64,000 nt of DNA, taken from Barthelona sp. PCE (Eukaryota). The stretch is from positions 806,001-870,000 of the forward strand of contig JAUFOR010000003.1 of the NCBI GenBank assembly GCA_040285745.1, in the 5' to 3' direction. The translations under genes were made by a program, and so were the position numbers. The notes under the pieces are model-generated. The model saw only the letters and a program-made list of their open reading frames with translations, was not told the origin of the DNA and ran no database searches. Below, piece by piece: positions 5,169 to 35,938 of this stretch; the stretch's first letter is position 1; the number at the start of each line of letters is the position of its first letter.

Positions 5169-7619
5169 CTACATCATGGGATATACATCCTCCCCAATAA
5201 CACTGAATGATCCTTTCTTATCTGCAAGAACATGCAAACAGACCTTAAAATCTTCATATGACAATGTATCATCTTCAACATTGTATACTTCAAAGAGCTG
5301 CTGCACTGTGCACTGTGTAGCCATCAAAGAGCGGAAACTTTCTGAAGTTCTGAAGACTGAGTCGATCCTCTCAACGTACTCATGGGTAGTTGCAGGTCTT
5401 GTTCTTCCAGCTATTGCTGCTTCCTCCATCGCAGCAAGCTCAGCGTCTTCACGCTCTCTCAGGGCCGCTGCCCCCTGTCTTGTCAGCGTTATTGGTGAAC
5501 GGAGGGTGTTCTCTTCTTCATCCGTCTCTTCATCACTTTCCATTGGGAATACAGGCGCAGTAAAATCTTTCTTGGGCGTTTGTTCCACAGTTTCTGGGAG
5601 CGCCTGTACCTTCCTATCCATCGGGGCAGTCTGCTCTGCTTGAGGTTTATGACTGCGCATGTTTTGTTTCAGTTCCAAATCAGCCACCATGGTATCGTCC
5701 ATCGCTCTCTTGACGTCTGCACTCTTAAGCGCTGTCTGGAACAGGCGAACGGCCTCCTCTGCATCTTTCAACTCGACCTTGTCCTCACTGAAGCGCAGTT
5801 TCGCAACACTCTCAGCCAAACGGATGAGGGCTTCCAGTGAACGCGGTGTAAGGGGCAGGAACTTTTTATCAGTGACCTGGTCCCTATCACGTGCACGCAT
5901 GTTTACCCACCTGTTCTTTAAGTAGTCCATTGCGTTCCTTGTCAATTTAGGTTTGAGTTGCCTTGTGAAATGGAAGAGCTTTTTGAGAAAGTCGATATCA
6001 AGATCGCCACGCTTCGCCTTGAACTTGCCACAGTGGACATCAAGGATATGGCCTGCAATCATGTAATCAAGGTTCTTGTCGAATCTGTCTACAATTACCC
6101 AAATAAGATCGAATCTGGACAATAGCGACCTCGGTAAAGATATGTTATCTTCAGGCGGCAGTTCCACCGCATAGTGGCCAGCGACAGGGTTGGCAGCAGC
6201 TAGCACAGAACATCTTGCGTTGAGCTCGGTGTGGATTCCTGCCTTTGTGATTGTAACCGTCTGCTGCTCCATGACTTCGTGCAGTGCTACCTGGTCGACG
6301 GCCGACATCTTGTCGAACTCATCGATAACGACGACGCCCTGATCAGCCAGAACCATTGCACCCGCCTCAAGCTTCCTCTCGCCGCTTTCAGGGTCTACAC
6401 CGACTGAAGCTGTGAGACCGACACCCGTCGATGACTTACCCGTGGTGGAGACCGCCAATGGTGCGACTTTGAGAACGAAACGACAAAGCTGTGATTTTGC
6501 TGTTGAAGGGTCACCAATAAGCATAATATTGATGTTTCCTCTTAAAAATGACCCAGAGGCGAGGTTCATCGTGTTTCCACCTGCTAACATACACGCTATG
6601 CTTTGCTTGGCATCCTGATGACCGTAGACGGAAGGCGCAATGCTATCGCCAATGACATGAAGTGCGTTCTCCGTTCCATGGCAGAACTCGCGCACCTCTT
6701 CGCGGTCTTCAGTTGTGTATCTATTGTCGAGACGCGCGTCGATATGTTCCACATTGTTAACCACGAGTATAGTTTTGAGGTAACCGTCCAGATGTGTTGT
6801 GAATGCTTGCGGCCGGGCTATGTAACATCCGTTGAGCTTGACGCGGTCTCCTGGCTTGACGCGATCAACGTATGATCTCTTCATGACGACGATGCAACTC
6901 ACTGGGAGTCTACCCGTAGGTGTTCTCTCTGGCAGCTCCTGTAGTGTCACGTACTGCATGTCAAAGTACATAGAGTGGCCGTATTGAGGAATGAGCACCT
7001 TCTGATCGTTGTGTGTGAGTGGTGCTGCTGTTGATGAGAGACCGTATGTGGAAAGTGAGAGTCCATCAGGTGTGTTCGTTTCAAGAAGTGTGTTGTCCTC
7101 GGGCGAGTGATACACAGCATGCGAAAGTTGAGGGTGTGATGAACCTGTTCGGGTTACAACACCTTCAACACTCACCATTTTGTGTAAAAAAGTGTGATCC
7201 AGTTCACGGGGAGATACTCGGTTACGACCGAACGCACCTACGAGTGAAATCTGTACCTCTCTGTGCATTTTTCTGTGATTGAGGGGATGTGTAGGTGCCT
7301 TATGTGTTTCATCGATTATCTGGGTTAGAACCCGCTCTAGTGGTGGGAAATACTCCAGGGCATCGTCCATAAGCCCTCTATACATACTGGCATCCCATTC
7401 GAGGATATCCTCCACGTTTATGCTTATAATTCTTGTTTCAGTCTTTTTATCCCATCCATCGATCATACTCTGAACCCTATGGTGTATTTTGCGTGAAAAC
7501 TGCTAAAAATTAGAAAAAATCATCAAGTAATTTTCAATCCATACTGTTGGTTCTTCCGGAGAGAAGAATTGATACCACCGCATCTGTATCTCATTTGCTT
7601 CCCCAAACTGTTGTGTCAT
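5169..7619 (-). CDS. MCM3: DNA replication licensing factor MCM3 (exons 7619-7545, 7502-5169)
   Basis: GDPSTAKSQL, LEAGAMVLAD, IDEFDKM, SRFDL; upstream exon joins in frame across a 42-nt intron. Confidence 0.92.
7503..7544 (-). other. Spliceosomal intron, 42 nt, in MCM3
   Basis: GTATGG...CTAATTTTTAG; removes an in-frame TAG; NAGNAG alternative acceptor at 7500. Confidence 0.85.
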
Positions 7620-17913: not shown

Positions 17914-18283
17914 ATCTGCTTGTTTTTTGCTATAATACCCTGCCTTATTGACCAATAAAAGCCCGTTTTCTTAAAATGGGTTAGAAAATTTTTAACAGGA
18001 AAATGATTTTTGAACACGATTTATTGCCTTTTGTTATCTTAAGTCTACGGGTTGATGGTGAATATTTACATTTTTGAGTAGCACTAATCTATAATGGTGT
18101 AAGTAAAGAACCTGCGTGATTTGAATCAGTTTCAATAATTGAAAAATGTTCCTTTATTATTCTGATATTTATAAAGCTTCGATAAACCTTAATTAAGTAG
18201 TTATTGTCAAATGGAAAATCAAATGAAGCGAAAAAAACAAAAATGCACTCTCTTGTTTATTATTAATGCATAATTATGTGTCT

Positions 18284-18685
18284 CTAGGCCTTGTTGAAGG
18301 AAGTGATCTCAGCAGAAGAGATCTTCTCATGGGCAACCAAAGCATCAACGATATCATCAGTGGAAGCTTCTTCATCCTGAATCTTGAAGACAAGGATGAG
18401 CTTCTTAAGACCGAAGACGAAGGGCTGTACCTGTTCACCAGTGATTTCAACAACACCGGGGCAAGCAGCAACGATTTCCTTGGCGGCTTCAACAACTTCC
18501 TCAATGGGGATCTCAGCCTCAGGGAGAACCTGCATACCGACGTTAGAGAAGGCAGTAGTATCCTTAGCGGCGTTCTTCTCATCAATCTTCTCTTGAGCAA
18601 GTCTAGCACGTTCCTCAAGCTGACGCTCCCATTCACTACCCTGGGAGTCAGAGGCGAAACAATCAAAGTCGGATTCACTGGACAT
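18284..18685 (-). CDS. EF1B: Translation elongation factor 1-beta
   Basis: FDCFASD, QPFVFGLKKL, SAEITSFNK. Confidence 0.88.
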   Translation of the reverse strand: MSSESDFDCFASDSQGSEWERQLEERARLAQEKIDEKNAAKDTTAFSNVGMQVLPEAEIPIEEVVEAAKEIVAACPGVVEITGEQVQPFVFGLKKLILVFKIQDEEASTDDIVDALVAHEKISSAEITSFNKA

Positions 18686-19282
18686 TATAAGTTAGAATAA
18701 GCTAAAGAAAAGCAAAAGAAGAAAGTTTGCAAAGTATTGTGATTTTACTTGTTCAACCAATGTGACGGAATTTAATAAAGGTTTAAAGCTCATTTACTTG
18801 AACAAAATCTTGAAAGGAACATTTACTGTGAGTAAAAATTCGAAATACCTAATTCTTATTGTTAAAACAGATTCCCTTTGGTTAACGGACTTTAATAAGA
18901 CATTTGCGCCATGTGGTGGAATATTCAGTATATAATATAATGTATAGAATGTTTTTCGGATAGAATGTTTTTTTCTGACAGAAATGATAGTTTTGCTGGA
19001 TATTCCAGATAGTTAAGGTGTTATGTAGCTGTTATTCATACAGCATAATTGCTACAAACGATTTTCACCGCAGAGCGCAGCGCAGGACACGCCCGCGGCG
19101 CCCTGAGCCCGCCCCCGCCGGCGAGCCCAGCTCATCACCGAGACACGACGGGAGAAGCAGCCGGGGGCGAGCCGAATGTGCGAATGCAACATCGCACATT
19201 TGTTTCACACCCCCAGTCCCTTGCCCCCGTGATCCGGCTGCATCACCCCGCCCCAGACCCAACGCATCCCGCGCGGGCGAAA

Positions 19283-19290
19283 TATAAAAG
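19283..19290 (+). promoter_or_regulatory. TATA box upstream of H2B (mirrored in copy 2)
   Basis: TATAAAAG about 90 nt upstream of the ATG, preceded by CCCGCCCC GC-box-like motifs. Confidence 0.55.
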
Positions 19291-19373
19291 CCTTGCTGGA
19301 TGCCAAAGTCAACGTAGAAACCCCACCTATTGCCGGATTTCATTCGACCTCATTATTTTACTACTCACTCACA

Positions 19374-19790
19374 ATGCCCGCCAAGTCCAAGAAGCGTTTA
19401 GCCAAGTCCACCAAGATGCCTGCCAAGGCCAAGGCCTCCACCACCGGTTCTGAAGCCAAGGCCACCACCAAGCGTCATAAGGCCCGTAAGGAAGTTTGGG
19501 ATCGTTTCGTCTACCGTATCCTCAAGGCTACCAACGATAAGCTTGCTATCTCCACTAAGTCTATGACCATCATCAACTCTCTCATTGATGATATCTTCGA
19601 GCGTATCGCCGAGGAAGCCTCCAACCTTTGTAAGATGAACAAGCGTGCCACTCTCGGTTCCAGAGAAATCCAGACCGCCGTTCGTCTCGTCTTCCCCTCA
19701 TATCTTGCCCGTCACGCCGTTACCGAAGGTACTCAGGCTGTCCGTAAGTTCTCCAACGTTGACGAGGAGGACGTTGAGGAGGAGGAGTAA
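19374..19790 (+). CDS. H2B: Histone H2B with acidic C-terminal tail, copy 1
   Basis: ISTKSMTIINS..DIFERIAEEAS, REIQTAVRL, HAVTEGTQAVRKF; ATG at 19374. Confidence 0.95.
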   Translation: MPAKSKKRLAKSTKMPAKAKASTTGSEAKATTKRHKARKEVWDRFVYRILKATNDKLAISTKSMTIINSLIDDIFERIAEEASNLCKMNKRATLGSREIQTAVRLVFPSYLARHAVTEGTQAVRKFSNVDEEDVEEEE

Positions 19791-20037
19791 TAGCTCTGAA
19801 CCCAACCAAGCGTAGCCGCTGTCCGAGCCGCACGGCCCCAAGGCCGCGATCCAGCATGTAAACCCGCATCATTTTTTTTGTTTTGTGCAGGTCTGATCCT
19901 GTCTCTTCTGTGCGACGTTGGTGCGGTTGGTGCCCGGTCCGGCGGCCCGGCGGCCCCCACCTCCGGTCGTGGCTTTTGTTATTGGTAAAGTTAATCAAAA
20001 AATGGAATTTGCTCTTATTTACATTTAATGCATCTTA

Positions 20038-20274
20038 TTATCCCTGTCGGCCTGTAAACGACGAAAGCAACCTCTGTACTAGTGAATCCATCTTCTTAAC
20101 ATCCCCATGTGTTCGACTCACATATTTAACAACAATTTCATGGGAGTTGGTAACCTTAAGTTCCATCTTCCGATCACATGACCTATATTTGAGTTGGTAT
20201 GTGAATGTATCGGGGTTCTGGAGGTATAATTCCAGGGCAATCTCTTCAAATTCTTCAAAATTATCTATCTTCAT
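20038..20274 (-). CDS. SRP9: Signal recognition particle 9 kDa subunit
   Basis: FEEFEEIALELYLQNP...LKYR...LKVTN...VKY pattern. Confidence 0.8.
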   Translation of the reverse strand: MKIDNFEEFEEIALELYLQNPDTFTYQLKYRSCDRKMELKVTNSHEIVVKYVSRTHGDVKKMDSLVQRLLSSFTGRQG

Positions 20275-20461
20275 CAAAAATATGTAACACTTCCCAAATT
20301 ATAACTGCTGAGTGCAAAAACAAAGTAAAAAAAACGGCGAATGAGCGAGAAAAGACAAAAGCATTGATTTTCAACGTTTCAAAGATTCTATTTATTCTCA
20401 TATCTATCATACGCCTGTCACCAACATATGTATTATTGTAAAAAATGAACACACAATTTTA

Positions 20462-21058
20462 CTATCCTAATCGTTGAATTGCAACAGCAAATATTTCCAT
20501 TTCATTTCTCAAATTGTCAATCTGCTTCAACAACGTTGCCACGTCCTTGCTGGACTCACCTAACATATCACTAAATGCTATTAAATTAAGGCGCTGATCA
20601 GTTACATGTAAAACACTCGTATGTAACGTGCTCAGTTGCTCTGTGAGCCATATTAGCTGGTGCAAAAAGTCATCTAAAAGTGCTTTAGAATGTGCATCCA
20701 TAACTGTCGCATTGGAGCTACTTGATGAAAGAATCTTGCTGAGTTCCATCTCCAATCTCATTAATAGATTCTCAATATGTCCCCTATTATTCAAGAAGAA
20801 CTGTAATTTGGGTTTTAAATTGTTCATTTTAGAAACTAACGAGAAGCATTTAGATTCAGAATGCTGGAAAGAAAATTCCAATGCATTCAGTTCTGAATTG
20901 GTGCTTTGTATGAGAACTAAGTACTCTGTAGCTTGTTCTAACTTCTGAAAAAAGCTCAAATCATTTTTCTCAAAAAAGTCGAGATTATAGTCATAGTTAA
21001 TAGCGAACTCATTGCATATTTCGGTTATTGCCCGCCCAGACACATCCACCACATTCAT
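20462..21058 (-). CDS. Hypothetical coiled-coil protein
   Basis: 198-aa helical ORF; AGTAAA at the stop. Confidence 0.6.
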   Translation of the reverse strand: MNVVDVSGRAITEICNEFAINYDYNLDFFEKNDLSFFQKLEQATEYLVLIQSTNSELNALEFSFQHSESKCFSLVSKMNNLKPKLQFFLNNRGHIENLLMRLEMELSKILSSSSSNATVMDAHSKALLDDFLHQLIWLTEQLSTLHTSVLHVTDQRLNLIAFSDMLGESSKDVATLLKQIDNLRNEMEIFAVAIQRLG

Positions 21059-21473
21059 ATATAACGTGTGTAGTTGTTGGAATTAGGATAACAAATCAAA
21101 AACCCTCTTTAACCTTAATTTCAATGTGTTGTTCACGGAAATGGAGACAATATAGCATTTCACTCTCACTCAAGATCCTTAAATTACGGTCATAATGAGC
21201 ATTTTGAAAGTAAATGAAATCCAGCATATGCTTATTATACAAATTCAACATGCTTCAGTTGAGTGTGGTTGCTCACTTCCACGGCACAGAAATGGATTTT
21301 TGCTGTTTATATGAATCTTTTATAATATAGAATTAGATTCTCACCTCACTCACAATTGGTTCATGAAATATTTCTTGTACGGCTTTTATGTGCGATATTT
21401 AGCGTTTTCAATATTTTTTGACCTTACAATATGCTGCATTTGCATATTTTTCCTTTTTCCATTGTATAATTCA

Positions 21474-22421
21474 ATGGATAGGGGAGCAATCATTGGTTAT
21501 ACAAGAGAACACCTATGTATTGGGAATGAAGAAGACGTAGCAACAGCAAGTAGAATTTGGCCGGTTTTTGTTCTTCAGAGATCCATTTTTGAACTATTTT
21601 CTGTGGAAGAATTGTTAGAAACCAGCTTTATTCACAACGTTTCAGGATTTTTTATTCGAATATATGCTGATAATAGATTCACTTTGCTGCAAATACAAAG
21701 GATCGCGTATGATCGAAATACTTCTTATATTGTGGGCAAAGGGCAACTTGAGAAGGTTACAAACATATTCATTGTGTGTAACAGTGTTTATATGAATGAT
21801 CCAACACCCATAAATGTACCACTTACTATTGTTAGTGATCGTGCACCGGACACACATGAGTTGGCATTCAACTGGAGCGAAATTGATCTCGAAAGTTTGA
21901 TTCAAAAGAGAAAAGATCTTATCGATAGAGTTTTACCAAAGTTGTCATCTCTTGACTTTAAATTCTCTCCCTACTGTTCATTATTTCAATATCTCCCAGG
22001 GTTGGATGCAGTCGATAACCATACTCGTGCTCAAGAATCATTTAAGAGCAATTTTTTAGAGAAAAAATCACCAAGAAAATCTGGTAGGCCAAGGAAACAT
22101 GTATCAAGAGAGCATGTAGTCCAATTGATCACTGAAGGGCACACTATTAAGGAGATTGCAGGTCTCTTGGATCCACCTGTAAGTAAGAAAACCTTGATCA
22201 ATCGTCTTGCTGAATATGATCTTTTGCAGTTAGCAGAAAGTAGCGATATAAGTATTGCTAAGAAGCGTACAACAAGCTCCCCACAGGTACCCACGCTTGA
22301 TATTCTAGCTAAAAACCAAAGCATTAACAGTAGTATGATGCTTGAATTGAATTCTTTTACTCAACCAGATCTTCAAAATGATGCTGTTTCTGACATCTCA
22401 CCCTTTGGCAGTTGGCAGTAG
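21474..22421 (+). CDS. Plus3-like domain, AT-hook and HTH protein
   Basis: VLQRS..FIHNVSGFFIRI..TNI..PLTIVSD (Plus3-like); KSGRPRK; GHTIKEIAGLL..VSKKTLINRL; an upstream ATG at 21363 is also possible. Confidence 0.6.
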   Translation: MDRGAIIGYTREHLCIGNEEDVATASRIWPVFVLQRSIFELFSVEELLETSFIHNVSGFFIRIYADNRFTLLQIQRIAYDRNTSYIVGKGQLEKVTNIFIVCNSVYMNDPTPINVPLTIVSDRAPDTHELAFNWSEIDLESLIQKRKDLIDRVLPKLSSLDFKFSPYCSLFQYLPGLDAVDNHTRAQESFKSNFLEKKSPRKSGRPRKHVSREHVVQLITEGHTIKEIAGLLDPPVSKKTLINRLAEYDLLQLAESSDISIAKKRTTSSPQVPTLDILAKNQSINSSMMLELNSFTQPDLQNDAVSDISPFGSWQ

Positions 22422-22512
22422 TCATGCATTTTTTATACTCCAGTGACGGTAATCCAATTTATCAACTTTCCAATTATTTACTAACTCAACAATTTTCCTT
22501 CTATCCCCTATC

Positions 22513-23355
22513 ATGCCTTGTCCTGTTCTATCCATGAGCCTCCAAAGAGAGTCTGAGGTGCCTTACAGCTACGATACGAAAGAAGAAGAGGATGTGTATG
22601 AAGAGCCAATAACCGAATTTTACAGACCGCGCTCCGATCAAATATCAGTGCCTCGTTACGATCTAGACATCGTGGGTCATCGTGTCAACTTTGATCCGGA
22701 TACCCAGCAGCTTATTACAAACAACAGGCTCTATCACAACGGTTATGCTTGGGTTATCAACATGGGAAAGACGAACTCACATTACTATCTCATGTTTGAA
22801 CGCCAGATTATGCGCCAAATGTCGCGCGCACCTTTTTCAGCCAAACTTCTTCGCAATCGCATGGAACGTGCAAAGTTGAATCGCGCCATACTAATGCAGA
22901 AGCGTAAGAAGCGCCTGTTACTACACATAAACCGCGTGAAGTTGCGTGTATTCCGCAAACGAGCTGAAGATAAGGAGATGCAACGTTTGATGCAGCGCAA
23001 TTACTCGTTGAAGCTTGCCAATGGCTCACACAACCGTAACATGATTTTGCATCGGATGAAGTTACGTCTCCAGTCCCATCTCCACATCGTTGAGCTCACC
23101 CGAAAGATGCACCGATTTGATGTTGAGCATGCACAAGCAAAGATAAATCGCATCACATCTACTTCGAAGGCCAACATTCCTGATCTTGTTGACGAGTCAA
23201 GGGCAATTGAATCTATCGTGAATGACATCGTTGTTGATGTTTCACAACGTCTAAAACGTCCTGACGTTGAAACTATCAAGGCTGCTGCTGGTATTGGATC
23301 ACCTGTCACCATGAAGCAGCGATCACTCAACAGTCCTATTCCTGGATTTTTCTGA
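22513..23355 (+). CDS. Hypothetical basic coiled-coil protein
   Basis: 280-aa ORF with Arg/Met-rich helical repeats. Confidence 0.65.
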   Translation: MPCPVLSMSLQRESEVPYSYDTKEEEDVYEEPITEFYRPRSDQISVPRYDLDIVGHRVNFDPDTQQLITNNRLYHNGYAWVINMGKTNSHYYLMFERQIMRQMSRAPFSAKLLRNRMERAKLNRAILMQKRKKRLLLHINRVKLRVFRKRAEDKEMQRLMQRNYSLKLANGSHNRNMILHRMKLRLQSHLHIVELTRKMHRFDVEHAQAKINRITSTSKANIPDLVDESRAIESIVNDIVVDVSQRLKRPDVETIKAAAGIGSPVTMKQRSLNSPIPGFF

Positions 23356-23393
23356 GCATCACAGCATATTTTCAAAAAAAATAAATATTAAAA

Positions 23394-24128
23394 TTACCTA
23401 ATTGTTTTTGAAAAGAAATTCATCTCTTTAGGTGTGTGTGGTGTTGAGGGGTGAGAATGAGATGAAGATGATTTGCGCTTCCTTTTACGCTTATCGAGAC
23501 GGTGACCTCTGACGGATTTCTTGCGCTGCGTTATAGCATTAACCTCAACCATGATGTCGCCACCGCACTTGGTTTGTAGGCCATAGAAACTCGTTGAACC
23601 CTGAAGTGTGTTTCCAAGCAAAAGAAGTGATTTGATTCGCTTCACCATACCTGTTCCACCCACTAATGCTCGCTGCCACTCCATATCTGGGATGAATGGG
23701 CGCCAGGTCCCAACAGTAACTGTGTCCATGGTACTACGGATGGGAAGAACAAGAGAACCATAACCCTCCACACGCATACGACGAAATATATCATAAGAAT
23801 ACACAACAAAACAAATATTCACGCTGAGCGTGGGTGCTAGAGGACCGATTACAGTAAAAGAAACAGGAAAACTAATGTTCCCAACCCCTTTTTTAGTTTT
23901 AACAGTTTGTGACACACCATTAAGTATGGTGGATTTATCTGTGCTGTAGCCCTCAGGGAGACCTATTTCGTATTCCACAAACAACCTTTTGCGATCAAAC
24001 TTCTTCAACTGTAGAATATTCAAACAATAGTGAATTCTTTGCAGTGTAGAACTAGGAGCGTTCTCAAAATGAACGCCCACGAGCTGCTTTCTCATAAAGA
24101 GTTCTTGTCGTCGCTCCGCGGAAAACAT
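23394..24128 (-). CDS. B9 domain ciliary transition zone protein (MKS1-like)
   Basis: LNGVSQT, VYSYDIFRRMRVEGYG, VGTWRP, LVGG. Confidence 0.78.
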   Translation of the reverse strand: MFSAERRQELFMRKQLVGVHFENAPSSTLQRIHYCLNILQLKKFDRKRLFVEYEIGLPEGYSTDKSTILNGVSQTVKTKKGVGNISFPVSFTVIGPLAPTLSVNICFVVYSYDIFRRMRVEGYGSLVLPIRSTMDTVTVGTWRPFIPDMEWQRALVGGTGMVKRIKSLLLLGNTLQGSTSFYGLQTKCGGDIMVEVNAITQRKKSVRGHRLDKRKRKRKSSSSHSHPSTPHTPKEMNFFSKTIR

Positions 24129-24238
24129 TGCGAAAAGAATAAAAAAACTAAAACATCATCGTTGAATATCAGGATGAAAAAGGGTGTTAATACCTCATTT
24201 TTATTGCATCATCAATAAATGTTGGACAAAAGGAGAGC

Positions 24239-25055
24239 TTACTGCTTGCCCTTCTTCTTGGTCATCTTTCTGGTGTAGAACTGTAATTCCTCACCCTCAA
24301 GGATGTAACCGTCGGCGTGACCGCATTGGCCAGGACGGGAAGAGATGCAAGCAAGGACACGGCCCTGAGAGAGCTGAGCAATGATAGCAGAATCAAGCTC
24401 AAGCTTAGAGCGACGCTCAGCCTGCTTCTTCTGAACGCTGTTGCTACGCTTGGTCTCAACATCGACAACCTTACCACGGTTGAAAGTGATACCGTATTGC
24501 TTCTCGAAGTACTGACGGAAGGGGTTAGCATCGATGGAAACAACAGCGTTCTTAACAAGGGTGTTAGTACGAACGAGTTCGTTGGAAGTAGCACAGTAGA
24601 CAACCTGAATAATACGGGTCTTGCGAGCACAGCTCTCAGAACCGAACGAGAAGTTACCGCTATCAAGACGGAGGGCTCTGAATTTAAGGTTACCACCGCG
24701 AGTACGGACAGTACGGATGAGAGGAGACTGATCCTTGCCAGTAATAAGCTTAGTCATGGCAGCAGCGCGTCCAAGGTTAAACTAGGTGTTAGGAGATGTT
24801 TAAGACCACTATAACTTTAGAATAATAACAGGATTTGCATAAAAAATGAAATATTTATGTACGAATGTATATGCATTAAGCAAACGCTTGCAGATGATCC
24901 CCGTCACAACATTAGCATCTATTTGGTGTCAAAACTGTATATACTGAAAGCTTGTGTGGTGAAAAATTTTTTCATACCTTACGCTTGTTTCTCCAGGCAC
25001 GACGACGTCCACCGGAAGGCTTACGCTTGTGTTCAGAATCACGAGAGATCGACAT
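24239..25055 (-). CDS. RPS8: 40S ribosomal protein S8 (exons 25055-24978, 24781-24239)
   Basis: Spliced N-terminus MSISRDSEHKRKPSGG...KRK|FNLGR; RTRGGNLKFRALRLD; SRPGQCG.ADGYILEG. Confidence 0.96.
24782..24977 (-). other. Spliceosomal intron, 196 nt, in RPS8
   Basis: AAG|GTATGA...CTAACACCTAG|; splicing restores the conserved RPS8 N-terminus. Confidence 0.93.
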
Positions 25056-25372
25056 AAGTTGATAAAATGGAAGAAAACAGTAAAGGAAGTTTCTCTCTTC
25101 TGTGAACAGTTAAAAGTCAAATTTACTCTACTTTGCTCTTTAAATCACGAGCTTAGTCATCGTTCAACGATAAAATAAACCATATACACATTTATTGTTA
25201 AGAAAAATTCTTTCTCTTTGTTGAAGAGTGAAAGCCATACTATATGTGTTGATTTTTTCACATATGATGCCAAGATGATCTGTTTATATGTGAATATCAA
25301 TGCTTAAACCCTTTGAAAAAGCTTCGAAAACTGTTTGTAAAAATGAAATAACTATTTACTAGAAAAGATCCG

Positions 25373-26776
25373 TTAAATATCAAAGTTGACCTCCATAGAC
25401 ACACCATTGTTGGTGGAAGTGTGAGTGTGAGTGGTGGTACCACTAAAAGTCACATCCATACCACCCATAGCTCCAGCCATAGCTCCAGCCATACCAGCTG
25501 TCATAGCGGCGGCGGCAGCAGCAGCGGCAGCAGCCTCAGCAGCAGCGTTGTTTGCATGAACCATCTCAGCGTTATTAGTGTTAACGGAAACTTCCATATT
25601 AACATTAGGTGTGACGGCAACAGCAGCGCCCATGGCCATAGCGGCGGCACCCATCATAGAGTTGAGGGAATCAGCAAGATCAGCGGTGAGATCGGCACCA
25701 GCAGTACAGGTAGGAAGAGGGTTGAGCATGTTAGCAGCAACGGGTTGGATCGTACCCCAAGTCTGAGGGACCTGGCCGTAAATGGTTGTGGGAAGCTTGA
25801 TGTGAACATCGGTAGACCAAGGAACGTTGGACTTGATGTGAACATAATAAGAAGCACGCATGCATGTACCGTCAGAAGAGGGCTCGATTGTCTCAGGGAG
25901 ATGAAGGACGATTGGCTTCTGAACAGTGGCACCTTGTACAGCACCATCAAATTGAGAAGTGGCAACAACCTCGGTGATATCGATGCGCTTACCCTCGTTG
26001 GAGGAGAGGCGTACGTTCTTGACGAGAGAGATCTGGCAAGAAGGAATATCAACCGTAGAGGTATTGTTGATCTCAACAAAGACACGAACATCATCGCCAG
26101 GAGTGAACATATTCTTCTCAAACCAAGCCTTCATGTTGACAATACCCTTAGGCACACAGCAGCAAAGACGAATGTTACGTTCAGCAGATTCTTGAGCAGG
26201 AACGACAAACTCACGAATACGCTGATGTACAATAAGACGCTGAACAGAGTTGATCTGGTGATCAAAGAAGAGAGAAGGAATTTGGATTGTGGCCTTCAAC
26301 TCGTAAGCAACGTTACCAGAAGCGGGACGACCAAAGTGTGTTCCAGACCAAGAGTGGGAACTAGGAATATTCTCAGGAAGCTGATAGGAGAATGGGAAAG
26401 CGTAGTATTGAGGGCTGGGAGGCAAGTTAGACGACAAAGGGAATGAATAAAGCACTAAATCGTCTTCACGAAGAATGTGATCACCAGTGTGAACAATAGT
26501 CTTGGTAATGTGCTTGTCACCTTCCCAATGAGTGGTTTCTTCCTCAAAGCGAGCAGTTTCAAAGGCTCTAATGTTTAACACAATAGAGGTTAACTGCAAG
26601 CCGTTAGGAGCAAGAAGGTAGATTGTACCTGTGACTCTGTCGCCAGAAAGATAGGCAGCCTGATCAGTACGAATAAAGATTTGAGCAGAACGATAAGCCT
26701 TAAAGTTAGTTGTTATAAAAGCCCAAAATGAGGATTTGCCAATGTATATATGGCAGATCAATATCTAACATACCAT
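25373..26776 (-). CDS. Arrestin-domain protein (exon 1 is the ATG only, 26776-26774; exon 2 is 26698-25373)
   Basis: YLSGDRVTGTI, FPFSYQLPENIPSS, FTPGDDVRVFVEINN, HIKLPTTI; Ala/Met-rich tail. Confidence 0.87.
26699..26773 (-). other. Spliceosomal intron, 75 nt, immediately after the start codon
   Basis: ATG|GTATGT...ACTAACTTTAAG|GCT; supplies the otherwise missing ATG in frame. Confidence 0.85.
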
Positions 26777-27059
26777 AGAATGTAACTAAAAGTATGTAAC
26801 TTTGGAAAAGGGTAGGAAAAAACTCAACAAACAAAACATGTCCAATCGCCCGATCCCGTTTTCAGAAAGGCTTTGTATCTACACACATTCACAAACAAAT
26901 ACATTAAATATATAACATGTAAAGACAAACTGATTAATCCAGAATATTCTAATTCTTTTTACTATGCACAATAAAATTACCATTTTTGCAGGTAAAATGA
27001 TACTAATAATATCTTTCAGGTGACCATATTCCACAAAAATTGTAAACAAAACAAAATTC

Positions 27060-29300
27060 CTAGAAAATGAGTTCTTCCAGGTTTTTATCCATAAATGTAT
27101 TGATTTCTTTTGCTCTAGGTCTTCCAACTATCCCCTCTAGAGCATTTTTCGACATTCTAGAAAAGTCAAATAAACTATACTGACCACTGGTTCGTATAAG
27201 TTCACCTATGTCTAATTTTGAAAACCCTGGCAGTAAAGACACAATATCTTGAGCGAGAGACGATGGAGACCGTACACTATCTCTATCTGATGTGTTAGAT
27301 TGCGCGTTTGGCAAATGTTCTTTAATGAACTTAAAAGTTAATGCAGAAGCATGTGGTGTAAGACCCCAACACACTCGTAATTGTGGGACCGACAATAACG
27401 TACGCACAAGGTGGACTTTGAGATGTTGCGGGAATAGCACAGACCAGGAGTTAATTCCTACTAGACCTTCACTTCCCATCTCTATCAATAATATTGGAAG
27501 ATCATACTTCTTTGCCAAACGCACGCACTGTTTGTGGAGGCGGCCACTGTCGATAGATTGGACTAAATCGACAATTGCCTTTCTTTCAACACCAACCGTA
27601 TCTGATACAATGTAATCAGCTGTGAATAGCGTTTGTATGTTAATATCAAAGCCAGCTTTTAATAATTCTAGTGGAAAACTGGCTCTCAATTCGCGAGAAT
27701 CAACAATAACGGTGTGCTGAACGTTTGTTGGTCCTAAATATGGAACAACCCTATTTCTTACGTTTAATCGAATTTTTTTGTTTTTTGCAAACCAATCTCT
27801 CTCTGCCTTCAAAAGATTGCGCTCTAAGTTGGTTTCTGCAGGTTTAACCTCATACTTCTCTAAAAGTAAAGTTTTCTTAGTTCCTTGCAAAAAAATTTCT
27901 AAAACACGAACAGCCTTCAGTGATGAGTGCATTAAAAACACACGATCTGGGTCAATGAGCTTGATCAGATCAACTGACATATCTTCTTCAGCGACAAATA
28001 AACAGAAACGCTCCATTTCAACTAACTTTGTCTCTTGAGCTCTGAATTTTCCCCTATTTGCACGTGGTGGAAGTGAAGACACCTGTGTGGGGATGAGGGC
28101 AGCGATTTGACGAGGTAAAATACGACGGAGCTCTCCTAACGCTTCGACAATAGAAATTATATCGAGATTTTGTTCCCATTGTTGATATGATTCAATGCAA
28201 TCCTTACGTCCAATGACAACAATGACGTCGTTTGACCCAGCAACGATACCACTTAGAGCATTCTTCAACAGTTGAAATTTTGGATTAACGACTGGGTTAA
28301 GCTCCTTTGCAGAGAAAACAAGCTCAACAACACCTTTCAGTATTGAAGCAGCGTGTGGTTGAGATATCCACGCAGATTTCTGCGATCGGTGCGCCCTGGC
28401 GTCTTTGAGCAGCCATCTAACAACCATAGTCAGAATAAAACACGATGAGCAATCATATAAACTAAGAAGCAGAATACGAAGTTGGGTAAATGATTTAACA
28501 TATGGACTCGGTAAATTGCTTGCGATTTTGCGCACTGAAGCAAAAGAAAGAAGCTTTTCCGGTGATAGACCTGTGTAAGTCAAATTATTCGTTAAAGTAG
28601 GCACCAGTTCAAATGATTGTTGTCTAAGAGCAGCACATGCCTTAAAAATCAGAGCACGTATCTTACATGCACGGCGGTGAAGTGATAGCTCTCGCTTAAG
28701 TACCATTAAATCGTTTGACAACCAATCTTTTGAGAGTTCAGGAAGTTGTCTGGGAATAACACATATTTCATCGATACAAAACGCTTTTCCAAAGTCTTTG
28801 AGTGAATGAAGTGCATGGAACTGATTGGAAAAAGCAAGAACTCGAATAGGACGCTGTTGAGCACATAAGTTTAGTGCAAATGCAAGACTATAGTCTGATA
28901 GCAGCTGTTCAGCATTCATTATGAAGAAAACAGGAATCTTTCCATTTGGAAGAGCGTTTTGGTGAACATCATTTGCAAGCATCCATCCAGAAATTTGTAA
29001 TAATGCTGGTGCTGAACTCTTGTACTCCTTTGCTCTCGCTTTGGGAGGTGTTCCTGCGAGATTCTTTAGGCTAAACCCCTTGCCAAAGCGTCTTTCGATA
29101 TAATACTGACTTTCGTATTTGCTTGTGAACCCACATGCGAAATACGGTCCAAAATCGGTCATAGTGTCGGAAGTGAAGTATCGAACAGCCGCTTCAAGTA
29201 ACGTCAGGTACTCAAGTTCGTAAGGAAATACATAAAAAACGCTTGAAGTGGAAGCCTTCACGAGTAGCTGTTCAAGGAATGAAAGTTCGTGTTGTGGCAT
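27060..29300 (-). CDS. XPF: DNA repair endonuclease XPF/ERCC4
   Basis: VIVDSRE, DYIVS..VERKAIVDL, ILLIE, C-terminal HhH, degenerate N-terminal helicase-like region. Confidence 0.88.
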   Translation of the reverse strand: MPQHELSFLEQLLVKASTSSVFYVFPYELEYLTLLEAAVRYFTSDTMTDFGPYFACGFTSKYESQYYIERRFGKGFSLKNLAGTPPKARAKEYKSSAPALLQISGWMLANDVHQNALPNGKIPVFFIMNAEQLLSDYSLAFALNLCAQQRPIRVLAFSNQFHALHSLKDFGKAFCIDEICVIPRQLPELSKDWLSNDLMVLKRELSLHRRACKIRALIFKACAALRQQSFELVPTLTNNLTYTGLSPEKLLSFASVRKIASNLPSPYVKSFTQLRILLLSLYDCSSCFILTMVVRWLLKDARAHRSQKSAWISQPHAASILKGVVELVFSAKELNPVVNPKFQLLKNALSGIVAGSNDVIVVIGRKDCIESYQQWEQNLDIISIVEALGELRRILPRQIAALIPTQVSSLPPRANRGKFRAQETKLVEMERFCLFVAEEDMSVDLIKLIDPDRVFLMHSSLKAVRVLEIFLQGTKKTLLLEKYEVKPAETNLERNLLKAERDWFAKNKKIRLNVRNRVVPYLGPTNVQHTVIVDSRELRASFPLELLKAGFDINIQTLFTADYIVSDTVGVERKAIVDLVQSIDSGRLHKQCVRLAKKYDLPILLIEMGSEGLVGINSWSVLFPQHLKVHLVRTLLSVPQLRVCWGLTPHASALTFKFIKEHLPNAQSNTSDRDSVRSPSSLAQDIVSLLPGFSKLDIGELIRTSGQYSLFDFSRMSKNALEGIVGRPRAKEINTFMDKNLEELIF

Positions 29301-29389
29301 CTTATCCCCGGTGCATCAAACAAATAACAATCAACAACAAAAAGAATGGAAAATGATGAGAGTTGGAAATGGTTCTTCGTTTACTGACT

Positions 29390-30290
29390 AAGCCACGACC
29401 GGAGGTGGGGGCCGCCGGGACGCCGGACCGGGCACCAACCGCACCAACGTCGCACAGAAGAGACAGGATCAGACCTGCACAAAACAAAAAAAATGATGCG
29501 GGTTTACATGCTGGATCGCGGCCTTGGGGCCGTGCGGCTCGGACAGCGGCTACGCTTGGTTGGGTTCAGAGCTATTACTCCTCCTCCTCAACGTCCTCCT
29601 CGTCAACGTTGGAGAACTTACGGACAGCCTGAGTACCTTCGGTAACGGCGTGACGGGCAAGATATGAGGGGAAGACGAGACGAACGGCGGTCTGGATTTC
29701 TCTGGAACCGAGAGTGGCACGCTTGTTCATCTTACAAAGGTTGGAGGCTTCCTCGGCGATACGCTCGAAGATATCATCAATGAGAGAGTTGATGATGGTC
29801 ATAGACTTAGTGGAGATAGCAAGCTTATCGTTGGTAGCCTTGAGGATACGGTAGACGAAACGATCCCAAACTTCCTTACGGGCCTTATGACGCTTGGTGG
29901 TGGCCTTGGCTTCAGAACCGGTGGTGGAGGCCTTGGCCTTGGCAGGCATCTTGGTGGACTTGGCTAAACGCTTCTTGGACTTGGCGGGCATTGTGAGTGA
30001 GTAGTAAAATAATGAGGTCGAATGAAATCCGGCAATAGGTGGGGTTTCTACGTTGACTTTGGCATCCAGCAAGGCTTTTATATTTCGCCCGCGCGGGATG
30101 CGTTGGGTCTGGGGCGGGGTGATGCAGCCGGATCACGGGGGCAAGGGACTGGGGGTGTGAAACAAATGTGCGATGTTGCATTCGCACATTCGGCTCGCCC
30201 CCGGCTGCTTCTCCCGTCGTGTCTCGGTGATGAGCTGGGCTCGCCGGCGGGGGCGGGCTCAGGGCGCCGCGGGCGTGTCCTGCGCTCTGC
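29390..30290 (-). repeat. GC-rich H2B cassette, copy 2 (inverted)
   Basis: Reverse-complement match to 19070-19975. Confidence 0.95.
29575..29991 (-). CDS. H2B: Histone H2B with acidic C-terminal tail, copy 2
   Basis: Translation identical to 19374-19790. Confidence 0.95.
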   Translation of the reverse strand: MPAKSKKRLAKSTKMPAKAKASTTGSEAKATTKRHKARKEVWDRFVYRILKATNDKLAISTKSMTIINSLIDDIFERIAEEASNLCKMNKRATLGSREIQTAVRLVFPSYLARHAVTEGTQAVRKFSNVDEEDVEEEE

Positions 30291-30545
30291 ATTGTAGATC
30301 ATACAACGTCTTAATCTGCTTATTTGCAGCGTGTTTGATATATTCACACCGTGCAGTCAAATTTTACATATTTTTAAAGGAAAGAAACAATTATCTAAAA
30401 TCTTTTCCAATATACTTAATAGATACTCAACAACCAATTGTTTGACCAGATTTACAAGCTAAGTTCGACACATACGGTCATGACCGATGCTATACATGAA
30501 AAATTAGATCAAAAAACACATTTGCTATTGCACACCACCTATATC

Positions 30546-30848
30546 TTATTGTACATTGCTTGAAAGAAACTCCTGTACCCAATTCTTGATGTGTGAGGGA
30601 CTATATGCCTCATACATCCGATCTCCTCTGTATGAAAGAACACCAATAGAATACAAAGAATCAATGTAATCATTCATTTCCGAACTAGTGTAAGATATCT
30701 TACGATTCTTTGTTTTTGAGGCCAGTTTTGTCTCGAAAAGTGTCAAGAGAGATCCCACCAAGTCGGAAACAGATTCAAATTCTGAAAATGTCTTACTGGC
30801 TTCATCTTCAGTAATTTGAATAAGCAAAATGAGGTGATCCGTGTTCAT
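30546..30848 (-). CDS. ERH: Enhancer of rudimentary homolog
   Basis: HLILLIQ..SKTFSEFESV..ISYT..YIDSL..YEAY..IKN. Confidence 0.85.
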   Translation of the reverse strand: MNTDHLILLIQITEDEASKTFSEFESVSDLVGSLLTLFETKLASKTKNRKISYTSSEMNDYIDSLYSIGVLSYRGDRMYEAYSPSHIKNWVQEFLSSNVQ

Positions 30849-30992
30849 TGCAATTTAAATTCGATAAAAAGAATGTGAAAGAGAAGCTTTTTTCAGAAAC
30901 AACATTTATCGAAAACAATCATCACGGTGAATGTCAAGCACCTGAAAGGTCACATCCACCATCTCAATAAATATGTATTTACAAACCAGTGG

Positions 30993-31448
30993 TTAAATCT
31001 GAGAAGGTCCGGGGGTAGTAGCGGCCTTGACACTTTGTTTGGCCATATATGAGGTGGCCTTTGCAGCGACAGCACTACTATCGATCGTCATCTCGGTGTC
31101 GGGCGTCTGCTTGGAGAAGAAGATGTGGAATAGACCAATGAAGACCTGAACCAAAAAGAATACCCATCCAGTGCCACCAAGAATGGCTGCGAGTGTTCCT
31201 ACCAAAATACAGAACAGTCCCTTGAGCGTGTGGTGATACAAGAACAAAAAGTACTGACGTAAGACCTTGACCTTAAGCTCACTACCGAGTTGAAGCACTC
31301 CAAAGAGCGCTAAGTAAACGCAAATCGCTACTCCCGTTGGGCTAAGCGTAACTATACTGCCAAGAACGGAGAAGAGACCATAAAAGATGTTTAAGATGGC
31401 GGAAATAATGGAAATAAATGCTACAGTTCTAGGACTTGGTGTTTTCAT
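30993..31448 (-). CDS. COPI-associated/Tvp15-like membrane protein
   Basis: Four hydrophobic segments; YFLFLY...KGLFCILVG. Confidence 0.65.
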   Translation of the reverse strand: MKTPSPRTVAFISIISAILNIFYGLFSVLGSIVTLSPTGVAICVYLALFGVLQLGSELKVKVLRQYFLFLYHHTLKGLFCILVGTLAAILGGTGWVFFLVQVFIGLFHIFFSKQTPDTEMTIDSSAVAAKATSYMAKQSVKAATTPGPSQI

Positions 31449-31857
31449 TATTAAATATGCTTATAGATGACAATATACTAGAAAATAAGTCTAACAGTAA
31501 TAAATAAGAGACTTGAAATGGGTAAACTACAAGAATTCAAACATTCAAGTTGCACATTCATTAATTCTAAAATATAACTTCGTGAATCACCCCAATTCAC
31601 CCATTAAACATCTCCTTTACTGGTAAAAACTTCCCAAATGCGTTCGCATTTACCTTTTGCAATATTCATGAACTCTTTTGTTTTTCTTTTGCATCTGGAT
31701 AAATTGATTCCTTATATTGCGTTATGACCATTTTCAGCAAAAAAAGAGCAAAACTTTGTAAGTGAGCCCTTTTGGTATCAGTTGTAAATCATACGTAAGT
31801 CTATAAGCAATGAATTCATGACCTAAAAACTTTTCATCTTGTTTATTAACACGTGTA

Positions 31858-32881: not shown

Positions 32882-34072
32882 ATGGCTACCGAAATTTTAA
32901 ACAAGATCCGCGACCGCGAAGATCCCACAAACTGGTGTGTATTGGTTGGGGATAAAGATGCTCCTGAAGGATTCTCAGCTATCGATTCTGGTGTCTCAGA
33001 GAACCCTATTGAGTCCCTGAAGGGTTATTTCACTCCCGAATTCTTGGGCTGTGGTTACATTTCAATCGCCCCTATTGCAGAAAGCCAAAACAGACGTGTT
33101 ACATGTTTCTTTGTTTTCTTCGGTGATAAGAGCCCTATGGGCGCAAAGGCCAGATTCCGTGCTGTCAGGGAACAGATCGAAGAGGCCTGCTATCCCGCAC
33201 AGGTTAGTATCGAGGCAAGTGAGCACGATCACATGCACGAGGCTGACGTCATCCACAAGGCCAGGCGCTCCATGGGTGCCAACTACGGCGGTGGTGCTGG
33301 TAAGGGTGCTGGTGCACTCCCCCGCGTCGACAAGCGTCTTGTTCACGAGCCTGAACCCGAACCCGTGAAGGAAGAGGTTGTTGAGGAAGTTATCGAGGAA
33401 CCTGAACCTGAGGTTGTTGAAGAACCTGAACCTGAGGAAGAGATTATCGAAGAACCTGAGCCTGAGGAGGAGGTTGTTGAGGAACCTGAGCCTGAGGAAG
33501 AAGTCATCGAAGAACCTGAGCCTGTTGAAGAGGAGCCCGAGCCCGAAGAAGAAGTTGTTGAGGAGCCCGAACCTAAGGAGGAAGAGCCCGTTGTTGTCGC
33601 CCCTGAAGAAGTCGTTGCTGCTACCAAGGAAGAGCTCGAAGAACTCGGTGATGGCGTGTTCATCAAGGATAAGAACACATTCATGGAGTACATTGATAAG
33701 GTCAAGGCCGAAAACGACCCCACTGATGTCGTCGTCGTACAGTATTTCACCAAGCCTAAGAGCCACTTTGTGATTGCATACTGTGGTACTGGTGGTCTTG
33801 AGAAGGCCAAGGAATACCTTGATGAGGGCAAGAACTTCTGTATTCTCCTCGCTTTGGGTAACAGATATTGCTCAATTGAGTGGATTGCCACAACATGCCC
33901 AATTTCTCATATCGCAAAATTCGGTCACTCCCGTCCTATCGTTCTCGAAGCATTCGGATACGTGCATATCCCCATGGAGACGACCGATCTCAGCATGGTC
34001 ACCTCAAAGGAAATCAATGAACGCCTCCGTAGATTCAGAGGAGCTAATTATGGTGGTGGTAAGAGCCAATAA
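32882..34072 (+). CDS. Tandem ADF-H (coactosin-like) domain protein with Glu/Pro linker
   Basis: Two domains starting DPTNW/DPTDV and ending GANYGGG; ATG at 32882. Confidence 0.75.
   Translation: MATEILNKIRDREDPTNWCVLVGDKDAPEGFSAIDSGVSENPIESLKGYFTPEFLGCGYISIAPIAESQNRRVTCFFVFFGDKSPMGAKARFRAVREQIEEACYPAQVSIEASEHDHMHEADVIHKARRSMGANYGGGAGKGAGALPRVDKRLVHEPEPEPVKEEVVEEVIEEPEPEVVEEPEPEEEIIEEPEPEEEVVEEPEPEEEVIEEPEPVEEEPEPEEEVVEEPEPKEEEPVVVAPEEVVAATKEELEELGDGVFIKDKNTFMEYIDKVKAENDPTDVVVVQYFTKPKSHFVIAYCGTGGLEKAKEYLDEGKNFCILLALGNRYCSIEWIATTCPISHIAKFGHSRPIVLEAFGYVHIPMETTDLSMVTSKEINERLRRFRGANYGGGKSQ
33347..33590 (+). repeat. Coding imperfect ~30-nt repeat (EPEPEEEVVE)
   Basis: Repeated gaacctgagcctgaggaag units. 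Confidence 0.85.
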
Positions 34073-35091: not shown

Positions 35092-35541
35092 TTACTTGGC
35101 GTAACCGACAACGTTACCACGACGACCAGTGGCCTTGGTACGCTGACCACGAACCTTGACTCTCCAGTGATGACGGAAACCTCTGTTGGTACGGATCTTC
35201 TTCTGGAACTGGATAGCGGTTCTGAGATGAGACACAACATCAGATGAAACGAGCTGGCCAGTCTCACCGGTGATGGGATCTCTCTGCATGTTCATGAACC
35301 AGGCAGGGAACTTGTATTCCGTGGGGTTGTTGATGACGGTAAGGAGACGATCGATTTCCTCACTTGAGAGCTCACCACAGCGCTTGTCGGTGTCAACATC
35401 AGCGGCCTTGCAGACGAGGTGAGCAAAACGACGGCCAACACCCTTAATACCGGTCAAAGCGAAAGCAACCTTAGTTTTTCCGTTAAGATTCGTGTTAAGG
35501 ACACGAACCATGTACTCGAAATTGTCAGCGAGAACTACCAT
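35092..35541 (-). CDS. RPS18: 40S ribosomal protein S18
   Basis: VRVLNTNLNG, ALTGIKGVGRR, KVRGQRTKATGRRG. Confidence 0.96.
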   Translation of the reverse strand: MVVLADNFEYMVRVLNTNLNGKTKVAFALTGIKGVGRRFAHLVCKAADVDTDKRCGELSSEEIDRLLTVINNPTEYKFPAWFMNMQRDPITGETGQLVSSDVVSHLRTAIQFQKKIRTNRGFRHHWRVKVRGQRTKATGRRGNVVGYAK

Positions 35542-35938
35542 TCTTGTAAATTAGGTTGACAATAGTAAAGGAAGTTTTTCCTTATTTACTTCAGCTTGGA
35601 GTACTGCCAATGGCTGCACAGCGCTGTTGGTTGATAAAAAAAAGGCATAACGCATAAACAAACAGATATTCACAAAATTCTATATCGATTCTTTGCTTAA
35701 TACGTTACTCAGCTTGTTTGTACATGCTTTTACCCATATTACACATGTTAGTAGACCATGAATGCCACTATCTTTCGTATAGTGTTAGTATTCTTTTTGC
35801 AGTTGACTAATCACAATCTGCACATACGCAACTCACTTTTTGGTTTCAAAATCGCATATTACACACCTAAACTACATAAATCTTACACCATCATCAAAAG
35901 AACATCATAGCCGGCACTAAACTATTTATTTTCTCATT

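Follow-up and report, generated by a model that had tools for sequence, protein, structure and literature searches.

Two near-identical, inverted histone H2B units with sharply bounded GC-rich flanks in Barthelona sp. PCE

In a stretch of 64,000 nucleotides (nt) from the genome of Barthelona sp. PCE (contig JAUFOR010000003.1, positions 806,001 to 870,000; hereafter the window, in which all positions are counted from its first letter), histone H2B is encoded by two near-identical, inverted copies of a unit of about 0.9 kb, each of which carries the gene together with flanks rich in guanine and cytosine (GC). Identity between the copies and GC richness of the flanks end at the same points. The pair is very probably a native two-copy H2B duplicate, and we assign a probability of roughly 55% to the fuller explanation that it is a dosage-type duplicate whose copies gene conversion keeps alike. 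For the GC richness of the flanks we tentatively propose GC-biased conversion as the main cause; these sharply bounded flanks may instead be GC-rich for the sake of a function.

In the explanation we prefer, H2B would be held as two copies of a self-contained 0.9-kb transcription unit in a very compact genome, each made up of an upstream region that is rich in GC and contains a palindrome and a TATA box, of an intronless coding sequence (CDS), and of a 3′ region in which TGTAAAC and a T-run precede a tail rich in GC. The copies would be homogenised by intrachromosomal gene conversion from one inverted repeat to the other, and the flanks would owe their GC richness to GC-biased repair in the course of conversion, perhaps in addition to that of a GC-rich regulatory region. 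As far as its genome paper was available to us, the assembly of Barthelona sp. PCE comprises 10.2 Mb in 8 contigs (N50 1,587,787) with 40.3% GC and 4.46% repeats, and this ciliated flagellate seems to have the smallest genome known from any free-living eukaryote (PMC11316075); histones are not mentioned in the main text of that paper. In so tiny a genome, with few duplicates of any kind, a retained duplicate would mark a dosage-sensitive gene.

Two inverted copies of one H2B unit

Aligned without gaps, the inverted arms span 19079–19975 and 29390–30286 (897 nt each, 9414 nt apart), and with a gap allowed the alignment extends to units of 906 and 901 nt (Table 1). These are the lengths given in the initial annotation, which had described two near-identical inverted copies matching across about 300 nt upstream, the CDS and about 185 nt downstream. 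We measured 304 nt upstream and 185 nt downstream of the CDS in each unit, so that 489 nt of the near-identical sequence is non-coding. Only two sites differ between the copies in about 900 nt, and they are the two differences already listed in that annotation. One is a 5-nt indel, where GCGCA is doubled in tandem in copy A, inside the first 15 nt of the unit and 5–10 nt from that end. The other is a substitution, G at 19945 in copy A versus T at 29420 in copy B, located 30 nt from the other end of the unit. Both differences lie within short tandem repeats (the doubled GCGCA and a doubled CCGGCGGC), which are slippage-prone.

The two H2B genes point toward each other (tail-to-tail) across 9.4 kb, and they sit in unrelated intergenic spacers. 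Short low-complexity coding repeats aside, the inverted pair is the sole dispersed repeat of at least 30 nt in the window. Outside the units, local alignments between the surroundings of copies A and B were at shuffle level in three of four comparisons (193, 213 and 196 of 300 shuffles were as good), and a longer downstream comparison contained one 26-nt match that was equalled by 6 of 300 shuffles. The four flank comparisons against shuffles thus gave no clear trace of older homology beyond the junctions.

At the level of annotated proteins, as compiled in one database table, the cluster of H2B at 90% identity has 2 members on 1 contig, compared with 1 member for the single-copy MCM3. In Skoliomonas, the H2B clusters contain 9, 4 and 3 members, each cluster on one contig. 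Taken together, these counts indicate that H2B is a small linked gene family, as is usual in the clade. The initial annotation had also noted that a partner H2A was missing, and we likewise found no ORF for H2A or any other histone-fold protein among the open reading frames (ORFs) scanned, namely 16 of the 43 long ORFs, 7 small neighbouring ORFs and another 56 stop-to-stop ORFs with 60 residues or more, a set in which an intron-split gene could be missed.

An assembly or polishing artefact, by which one copy would be spurious or the near-identity exaggerated, seems to us hardly credible. Each copy is set in unique gene-bearing sequence on both sides, the copy-specific differences lie near both ends, and a repeat of this size is far shorter than the Nanopore reads, which contributed 66x cover to the assembly beside 308x of Illumina reads (PMC11316075, as far as available). 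What keeps the idea in play is that short-read polishing can homogenise the copies of a 0.9-kb repeat, and that the short contigs from two sequencing runs, X1 and X2, could be placed within the CDS only (19392–19589 from X2 and 29706–29881 from X1; 0 mismatches, depth about 3), with none in the flanks or across the junctions. As these runs may share their source with the assembly, they do not count as independent support.

The flanks form a compositional island

At the four junctions, the 50 nt inside the unit contain 78–84% GC, compared with 22–34% in the 50 nt outside, so that identity and GC richness stop abruptly and together in both copies, just as first described. The underlying counts (49/60 GC at 19081–19140 and 19/60 at 18901–18960) were exact on recount. 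The flanks therefore form an unusually clean compositional island whose edges match the limits of paralogue identity to the base.

Overall, the window has a GC content of 43.5%, and its intergenic DNA away from the H2B units 35.9%. Within the unit, GC content amounts to 61.5% in the 5′ part, 62.7% in the 3′ part and 53% in the CDS, with a ratio of observed to expected CpG of about 1 throughout. We scored GC-rich stretches wherever a 100-nt window reached 60% GC and then merged them. This yielded 17 stretches in the 64-kb window, four of which are the flanks of the H2B units, while the remaining 13 are all located within long ORFs. The earlier statement that no other intergenic DNA here looks alike is borne out by this result. 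The flanks of EF-1 beta, RPS8e and RPS18, three other highly expressed genes of the window, have 26–38% GC.

The composition of the CDS is shifted as well. GC content at third codon positions (GC3) is 0.65 in H2B versus 0.52 in RPS8e, RPS18 and EF-1 beta pooled (Fisher p = 0.010), and the ratio of C to T at third positions is 59:39 versus 161:193 in the same pooled genes (p = 0.012). The shift occurs beside retained preferences for CGT, GGT and GTT, and stronger codon selection could yield the same shift. Non-coding GC of the unit (0.615 in the 5′ and 0.627 in the 3′ part) lies near its GC3 and far over the intergenic background of 0.359.

Gene conversion versus recent duplication

We infer that conversion, and not a very recent duplication, maintains the identity of copies A and B. 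Both differences fall within 30 nt of the unit ends, as would be the case if homogenisation acts on the interior and spares the edges, and in both copies identity stops, at either end, just where GC content changes. The closest described case, the H2b pair of Giardia, has been read likewise (see below). If conversion is GC-biased, this would further explain the rise in GC where identity starts, the proximity of non-coding GC (0.62) to GC3 (0.65) and the GC3 excess. Regarding the bounded GC-biased conversion tract that the initial annotation had offered as one of two explanations, the bounded conversion fits the non-coding identity, the end-located differences and the GC rise, while the GC bias is a part that we can only infer.

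The competing scenario assumes that an existing H2B unit was duplicated once, as a segment and very recently, that conversion is not at work, and that the GC-rich flanks are old and functional. We consider it possible but unlikely. A young duplicate would account for the mere one substitution and one slippage-type indel in about 900 nt, both in fast-mutating short tandem repeats, but the position of both at the ends is unexpected for a simple young duplicate. Had the unit been GC-rich before a one-off duplication, the two breakpoints would need to have fallen exactly on the GC/AT transitions in both copies, or precise trimming must have followed; in this scenario the boundaries would coincide since only the functional unit survives strong deletion pressure, for which a genome of 10.2 Mb with 4.46% repeats (PMC11316075, available portion) offers a suitable setting. 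Function in the flanks would agree with the palindrome (folding z-scores of −3.3 and −2.8) and the only four G-quadruplex-like motifs of the window, which suit a specialised regulatory region, and with the extreme unit ends being the GC-richest parts. However, the flanks of EF-1 beta, RPS8e and RPS18 are AT-rich (0.26–0.38 GC).

Several points also weigh against a duplicate kept alike by GC-biased conversion. The end location of the differences rests on n = 2 and thus on weak statistics, and short-read polishing of a 0.9-kb repeat could have erased interior differences. The count of H2B copies is based on annotated proteins, so that unannotated or flank-only copies would be invisible to it. 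The GC jump of about 26 points (0.62 versus 0.36) is about five times the 5-point excess of primate palindrome arms, and GC content peaks in the last 50 nt at either end (78–84%), where conversion should be least efficient. In addition, the T-ending codons CGT, GGT and GTT are kept in the CDS, which implies that a GC bias is either weaker than codon selection or absent. In theory, even a slight conversion bias is effective in a large population, so an effect of the size seen here could arise from it.

No support for a mobile cassette

As its other explanation, the initial annotation had considered a mobile, non-autonomous histone-carrying unit. We regard such a portable cassette, inserted at both sites by a transposition-like event or by templated insertion, as improbable, and judge no differently a variant in which ends of 80–84% GC delimit an insertion made without terminal repeats or target-site duplication, for example by break-repair templated insertion or an unknown recombinase. 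The four sharp junctions at which homology ends abruptly, the location of both copies in intergenic spacers between unrelated genes and a unit with its own candidate promoter and 3′ signals would all suit a cassette, and if it were one, the same GC-rich ends might bracket other genes in the 10-Mb genome. However, only the 2 annotated copies on one contig are on record, and the ends lack the expected marks. When the 5′ flank was compared with the 3′ flank for terminal repeats, the scores (18 for direct and 19 for inverted repeats) were close to the shuffle means of 17.6 and 18.3, with 87 and 81 of 200 shuffles as good. No target-site duplication is visible, as the bases before and after one unit (TTTCACC and TTGTTA) and those before and after the other (CTACAAT and AGTCAG) are unrelated, and the flank ORFs, scanned for a transposase or other element protein, had no Pfam match at expectation values (E) up to 0.01. 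The absence of a target-site duplication and a transposase had been reported at the outset. Of the features then named as speaking against mobility, the restriction to two copies was found (among annotated proteins), but ragged ends were not, the ends being sharp.

Searches of other sequence collections were negative, and the genome itself is repeat-poor (4.46%). A blastn search of plasmids and phages gave no match to the H2B unit, none of 58 pattern matches in viral contigs (IMG/VR) encodes a relative, and an exact 29-mer from the palindrome had 0 matches in the JGI metagenomes. A protein scan of the JGI metagenomes returned 29 loci with generic H2Bs (35–67% identity over the best segment) and no close relative. 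Across proteins and metagenomes, none of the relatives exceeded 59% identity.

A divergent H2B of native origin

The H2B ORF matches the Pfam family Histone (PF00125) with E = 2.8e-13 and 50.6 bits (cutoff 26.4) over residues 9–105, and it aligns with the solved yeast, Xenopus and human H2B chains over residues 2–128 or 10–128 with E of 1e-31 to 1e-33. The motifs REIQTAVRL and HAV are invariant across the H2B alignment. Two otherwise conserved H2B motifs are altered, with NDKLAIS in place of HPDTGIS and FPSYLARHAV in place of LPGELAKHAV.

A further deviation concerns the C-terminus. The usual H2B end, ...(Y/F)(T/S)SxK, is absent, and the protein ends in ...RKFSNVDEEDVEEEE. Skoliomonas H2Bs also lack the terminal lysine and end in ...GEGE or ...GEAE, so that a short acidic C-terminal extension is common to both, which has grown to ...NVDEEDVEEEE in the window H2B. 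The lysine of the usual ...SSK end is known as the H2B mono-ubiquitylation site. A counterpart of this lysine is lacking here, and an 11-residue acidic tail is found instead. At the end of the H2B ORF (19788–19802), TAA is followed by TAG and, two codons on, by an in-frame TGA.

Among 5.8 billion sequences, no protein is more than 55% identical to the window H2B. The best matches with a name, one pig entry excepted, are the five Skoliomonas H2Bs with 51–55% identity. In a tree of 41 sequences, the window H2B joins beside Skoliomonas with weak support (85/60), on a branch of 3.37 changes per column versus a median of 0.14, which leaves its placement unsure. Such a highly derived H2B, with its long branch and an acidic tail for the lysine-bearing end, may interest those who work on chromatin evolution.

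The H2B unit might instead be a foreign cassette, taken up from a giant virus, another eukaryote or some other donor rich in GC. Its composition is unlike that of the surrounding DNA, and both the limit of 55% identity and the very long branch could be read in this way. We nevertheless consider a foreign origin very improbable. The CDS uses the codons preferred by the host: arginine is encoded by CGT in 10 of 11 cases, glycine by GGT in 3 of 3 and lysine by AAG in 17 of 17, CGC, GGC, GTG and CTG do not occur, and the preferred codon set is the same as in RPS8e and EF-1 beta. Moreover, GC content is lower in the CDS (0.53) than in the flanks (0.62), the reverse of what would be expected had the gene come from a GC-rich donor. 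Affinity with Skoliomonas, the sister lineage, is indicated by the closest relatives of the protein and by the acidic C-terminus common to both, and the viral contigs of IMG/VR contributed no relative (0/58). As far as we can tell from codons, relatives and the GC content of the CDS below that of its flanks, H2B is the host's own gene.

Candidate regulatory elements

The GC-rich 5′ flank contains a palindrome with a perfect 9-bp inverted repeat at its core (Table 1), which recurs in copy B at 30163–30191 and is a candidate regulatory site. We further located G-quadruplex-like motifs, defined as four G-runs of at least 3 with loops of 1–12, at 19092–19128 and 19246–19270, with mirrors at 30095–30119 and 30237–30264. 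There are thus two per copy, upstream of H2B and on the strand opposite to the gene.

Downstream of the CDS, TGTAAAC and the T-run that follows it may together serve as a polyadenylation or termination signal. TGTAAAC is a variant listed for Giardia H2a-i (Table 1 of PMC1872034, which we could consult in part). The stem-loop of histone 3′ untranslated regions (Rfam Histone3) was not detected, as Rfam gave no match at E up to 1 on either strand of 18000–31500. Folding of the 3′ flank gave a z-score of −0.29 on the plus strand, no better than shuffles, and a second value of −3.07. We also considered whether the GC-rich flanks might conceal genes for structured RNAs and rejected the idea: it has folding z-scores only to recommend it, and no covariation can be scored between identical copies. 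A scan for bacterial-type promoters and terminators scored no better than shuffles and has no bearing on a eukaryote.

Feature coordinates and gene neighbourhood

Table 1 Features of the two H2B units and their immediate surroundings (positions within the 64-kb window).
Feature	Position	Strand	Description
H2B unit, copy A	19070–19975	+	906 nt, gap allowed
H2B unit, copy B	29390–30290	−	901 nt, gap allowed
H2B CDS, copy A	19374–19790	+	138 codons and TAA; intronless; GC3 0.65
H2B CDS, copy B	29991–29575	−	Encodes the identical protein
GC-rich upstream block, copy A	19070–19280	+	70.6% GC; upstream of TATA; observed/expected CpG 1.02; first 50 nt 84% GC
Mirror of the upstream block, copy B	~30080–30290		
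Perfect 9-bp inverted repeat	19175–19183 and 19192–19200		AATGTGCGA and TCGCACATT; 8-nt loop; core of a longer imperfect palindrome
TATAAAA	19283–19289	+	Candidate TATA box, putative function; 91 nt before ATG
TGTAAAC, T-run and TTTT	19857–19863, 19872–19879 and 19881–19884	+	Candidate 3′ signal; starts 67 nt past the stop
GC-rich 3′ tail, copy A	19886–19975	+	Last 50 nt 80% GC; tandem CCGGCGGC repeat with the substitution at 19945
EF-1 beta-like gene	18685–18284	−	Neighbour of copy A
SRP9-like gene	20274–20038	−	Neighbour of copy A
ERCC4-domain gene	29300–27060	−	Neighbour of copy B
ERH-like gene	30848–30546	−	Neighbour of copy B
Unique spacer between the convergent copies	19976–29389		9414 nt; SRP9-like, B9, RPS8e (with intron), arrestin-like and ERCC4 genes

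Recombination between the two arms could in principle invert the spacer. The window as a whole is gene-dense and eukaryotic, with MCM3, SNAP, RPS8e, an ERCC4 nuclease, a ciliary B9 protein and a COPI-associated protein among its genes.

Within the spacer, RPS8e on the minus strand is interrupted after codon 26 by a 196-nt GT..AG intron at 24782–24977. Exon 1 (25055–24978) starts with the ATG at 25055, exon 2 begins at 24781, and the joined CDS is open across 206 codons. The intron is bridged by one contig each in the sequencing runs X1 and X2, and as these contigs carry spliced RPS8e, the runs, whose kind is not on record, probably hold complementary DNA. For MCM3 (5169–7466, minus strand), the window ORF has 765 residues versus 802 in the matching database protein, which implies that the annotated gene model adds about 37 residues, presumably as an upstream exon. 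A ribosomal protein S13/S18 gene at 35095–35550 (minus strand; Pfam 7.5e-42) has ordinary flanks with 34% GC; its ATG-to-stop ORF of 149 residues falls outside the list of ATG-initiated ORFs of 150 residues.

Two coding low-complexity repeats were also observed. A Glu-rich run of 9-nt units occupies 59326–59721 inside an ORF of 1142 residues on the minus strand, and about 5 copies of a 30-nt unit at 33398–33598 form an EPEPE...-type repeat inside a cofilin-domain ORF. With the standard stop codons the long ORFs remain uninterrupted, and there is no sign of the code of some related flagellates in which TAA and TAG are read as Gln.

Comparison with known systems

The closest parallel is found in another metamonad, Giardia intestinalis, for which the available part of the report by Yee et al. 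2007 (PMC1872034) describes two H2b genes 5.8 kb apart on one chromosome and unpaired with H2a. These copies are identical in the CDS, in 56 bp upstream and in 16 bp downstream, an identity that the authors credited to recent duplication or gene conversion, and the histone mRNAs of Giardia are polyadenylated and lack the histone 3′ stem-loop (PMC1872034). The Barthelona pair is similar in that two copies lie a few kb apart without H2a pairing, are identical into their non-coding flanks and have no 3′ stem-loop. It differs in that its copies are inverted, whereas those of Giardia share the same orientation, and in that near-identity covers 304 and 185 nt of flank instead of 56 and 16 bp. Furthermore, the Barthelona flanks reach 62–84% GC amid intergenic DNA of 36%, and no such island is described for Giardia in the accessible portion of PMC1872034.

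Palindromes of the primate X chromosome offer a second parallel. In the portion available to us, Jackson et al. 2021 (PMC8981503) report arms that are more than 99% alike by conversion and have a GC content of 46.3% versus 41.2%, with the GC bias shown from polarised substitutions. Here too, inverted repeats enclose a unique spacer and the arms are GC-richer than the flanking single-copy DNA. However, the primate arms measure kilobases to hundreds of kilobases with an excess of about 5 points, whereas the Barthelona arm has 0.9 kb and an excess of about 26 points, for which the bias would be deduced and not shown from substitutions.

For mammalian histone genes, Galtier reportedly proposed in 2003 that conversion raises their GC content, mainly at coding third positions. 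Both cases concern a multicopy histone family, but the mammalian family is large, and the Barthelona gene is a two-copy protist gene with its strongest signal in the non-coding flanks. A literature search on GC-biased conversion in histone genes brought up no work on GC-rich flanks of such genes in protists.

Among mobile elements, Pack-MULEs and Helitrons are non-autonomous transposons that carry host genes without a transposase of their own. Their defining ends are terminal inverted repeats with a target-site duplication or, alternatively, 5′-TC...CTRR-3′ with a 3′ hairpin and insertion at A/T. The H2B unit resembles them as a discrete, gene-bearing unit present at more than one site without a transposase. 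It differs from them in that such defining ends were not found at the unit and that two copies are on record.

In conclusion, low-copy histone genes kept identical together with their flanks are already described in the related Giardia, and conversion between inverted repeats is textbook knowledge. Should polarised substitutions show GC-biased conversion in Barthelona, its H2B pair would stand out as an example of striking strength and sharp limits, and would testify to recombination and biased mismatch repair in an anaerobic lineage of which little is known.

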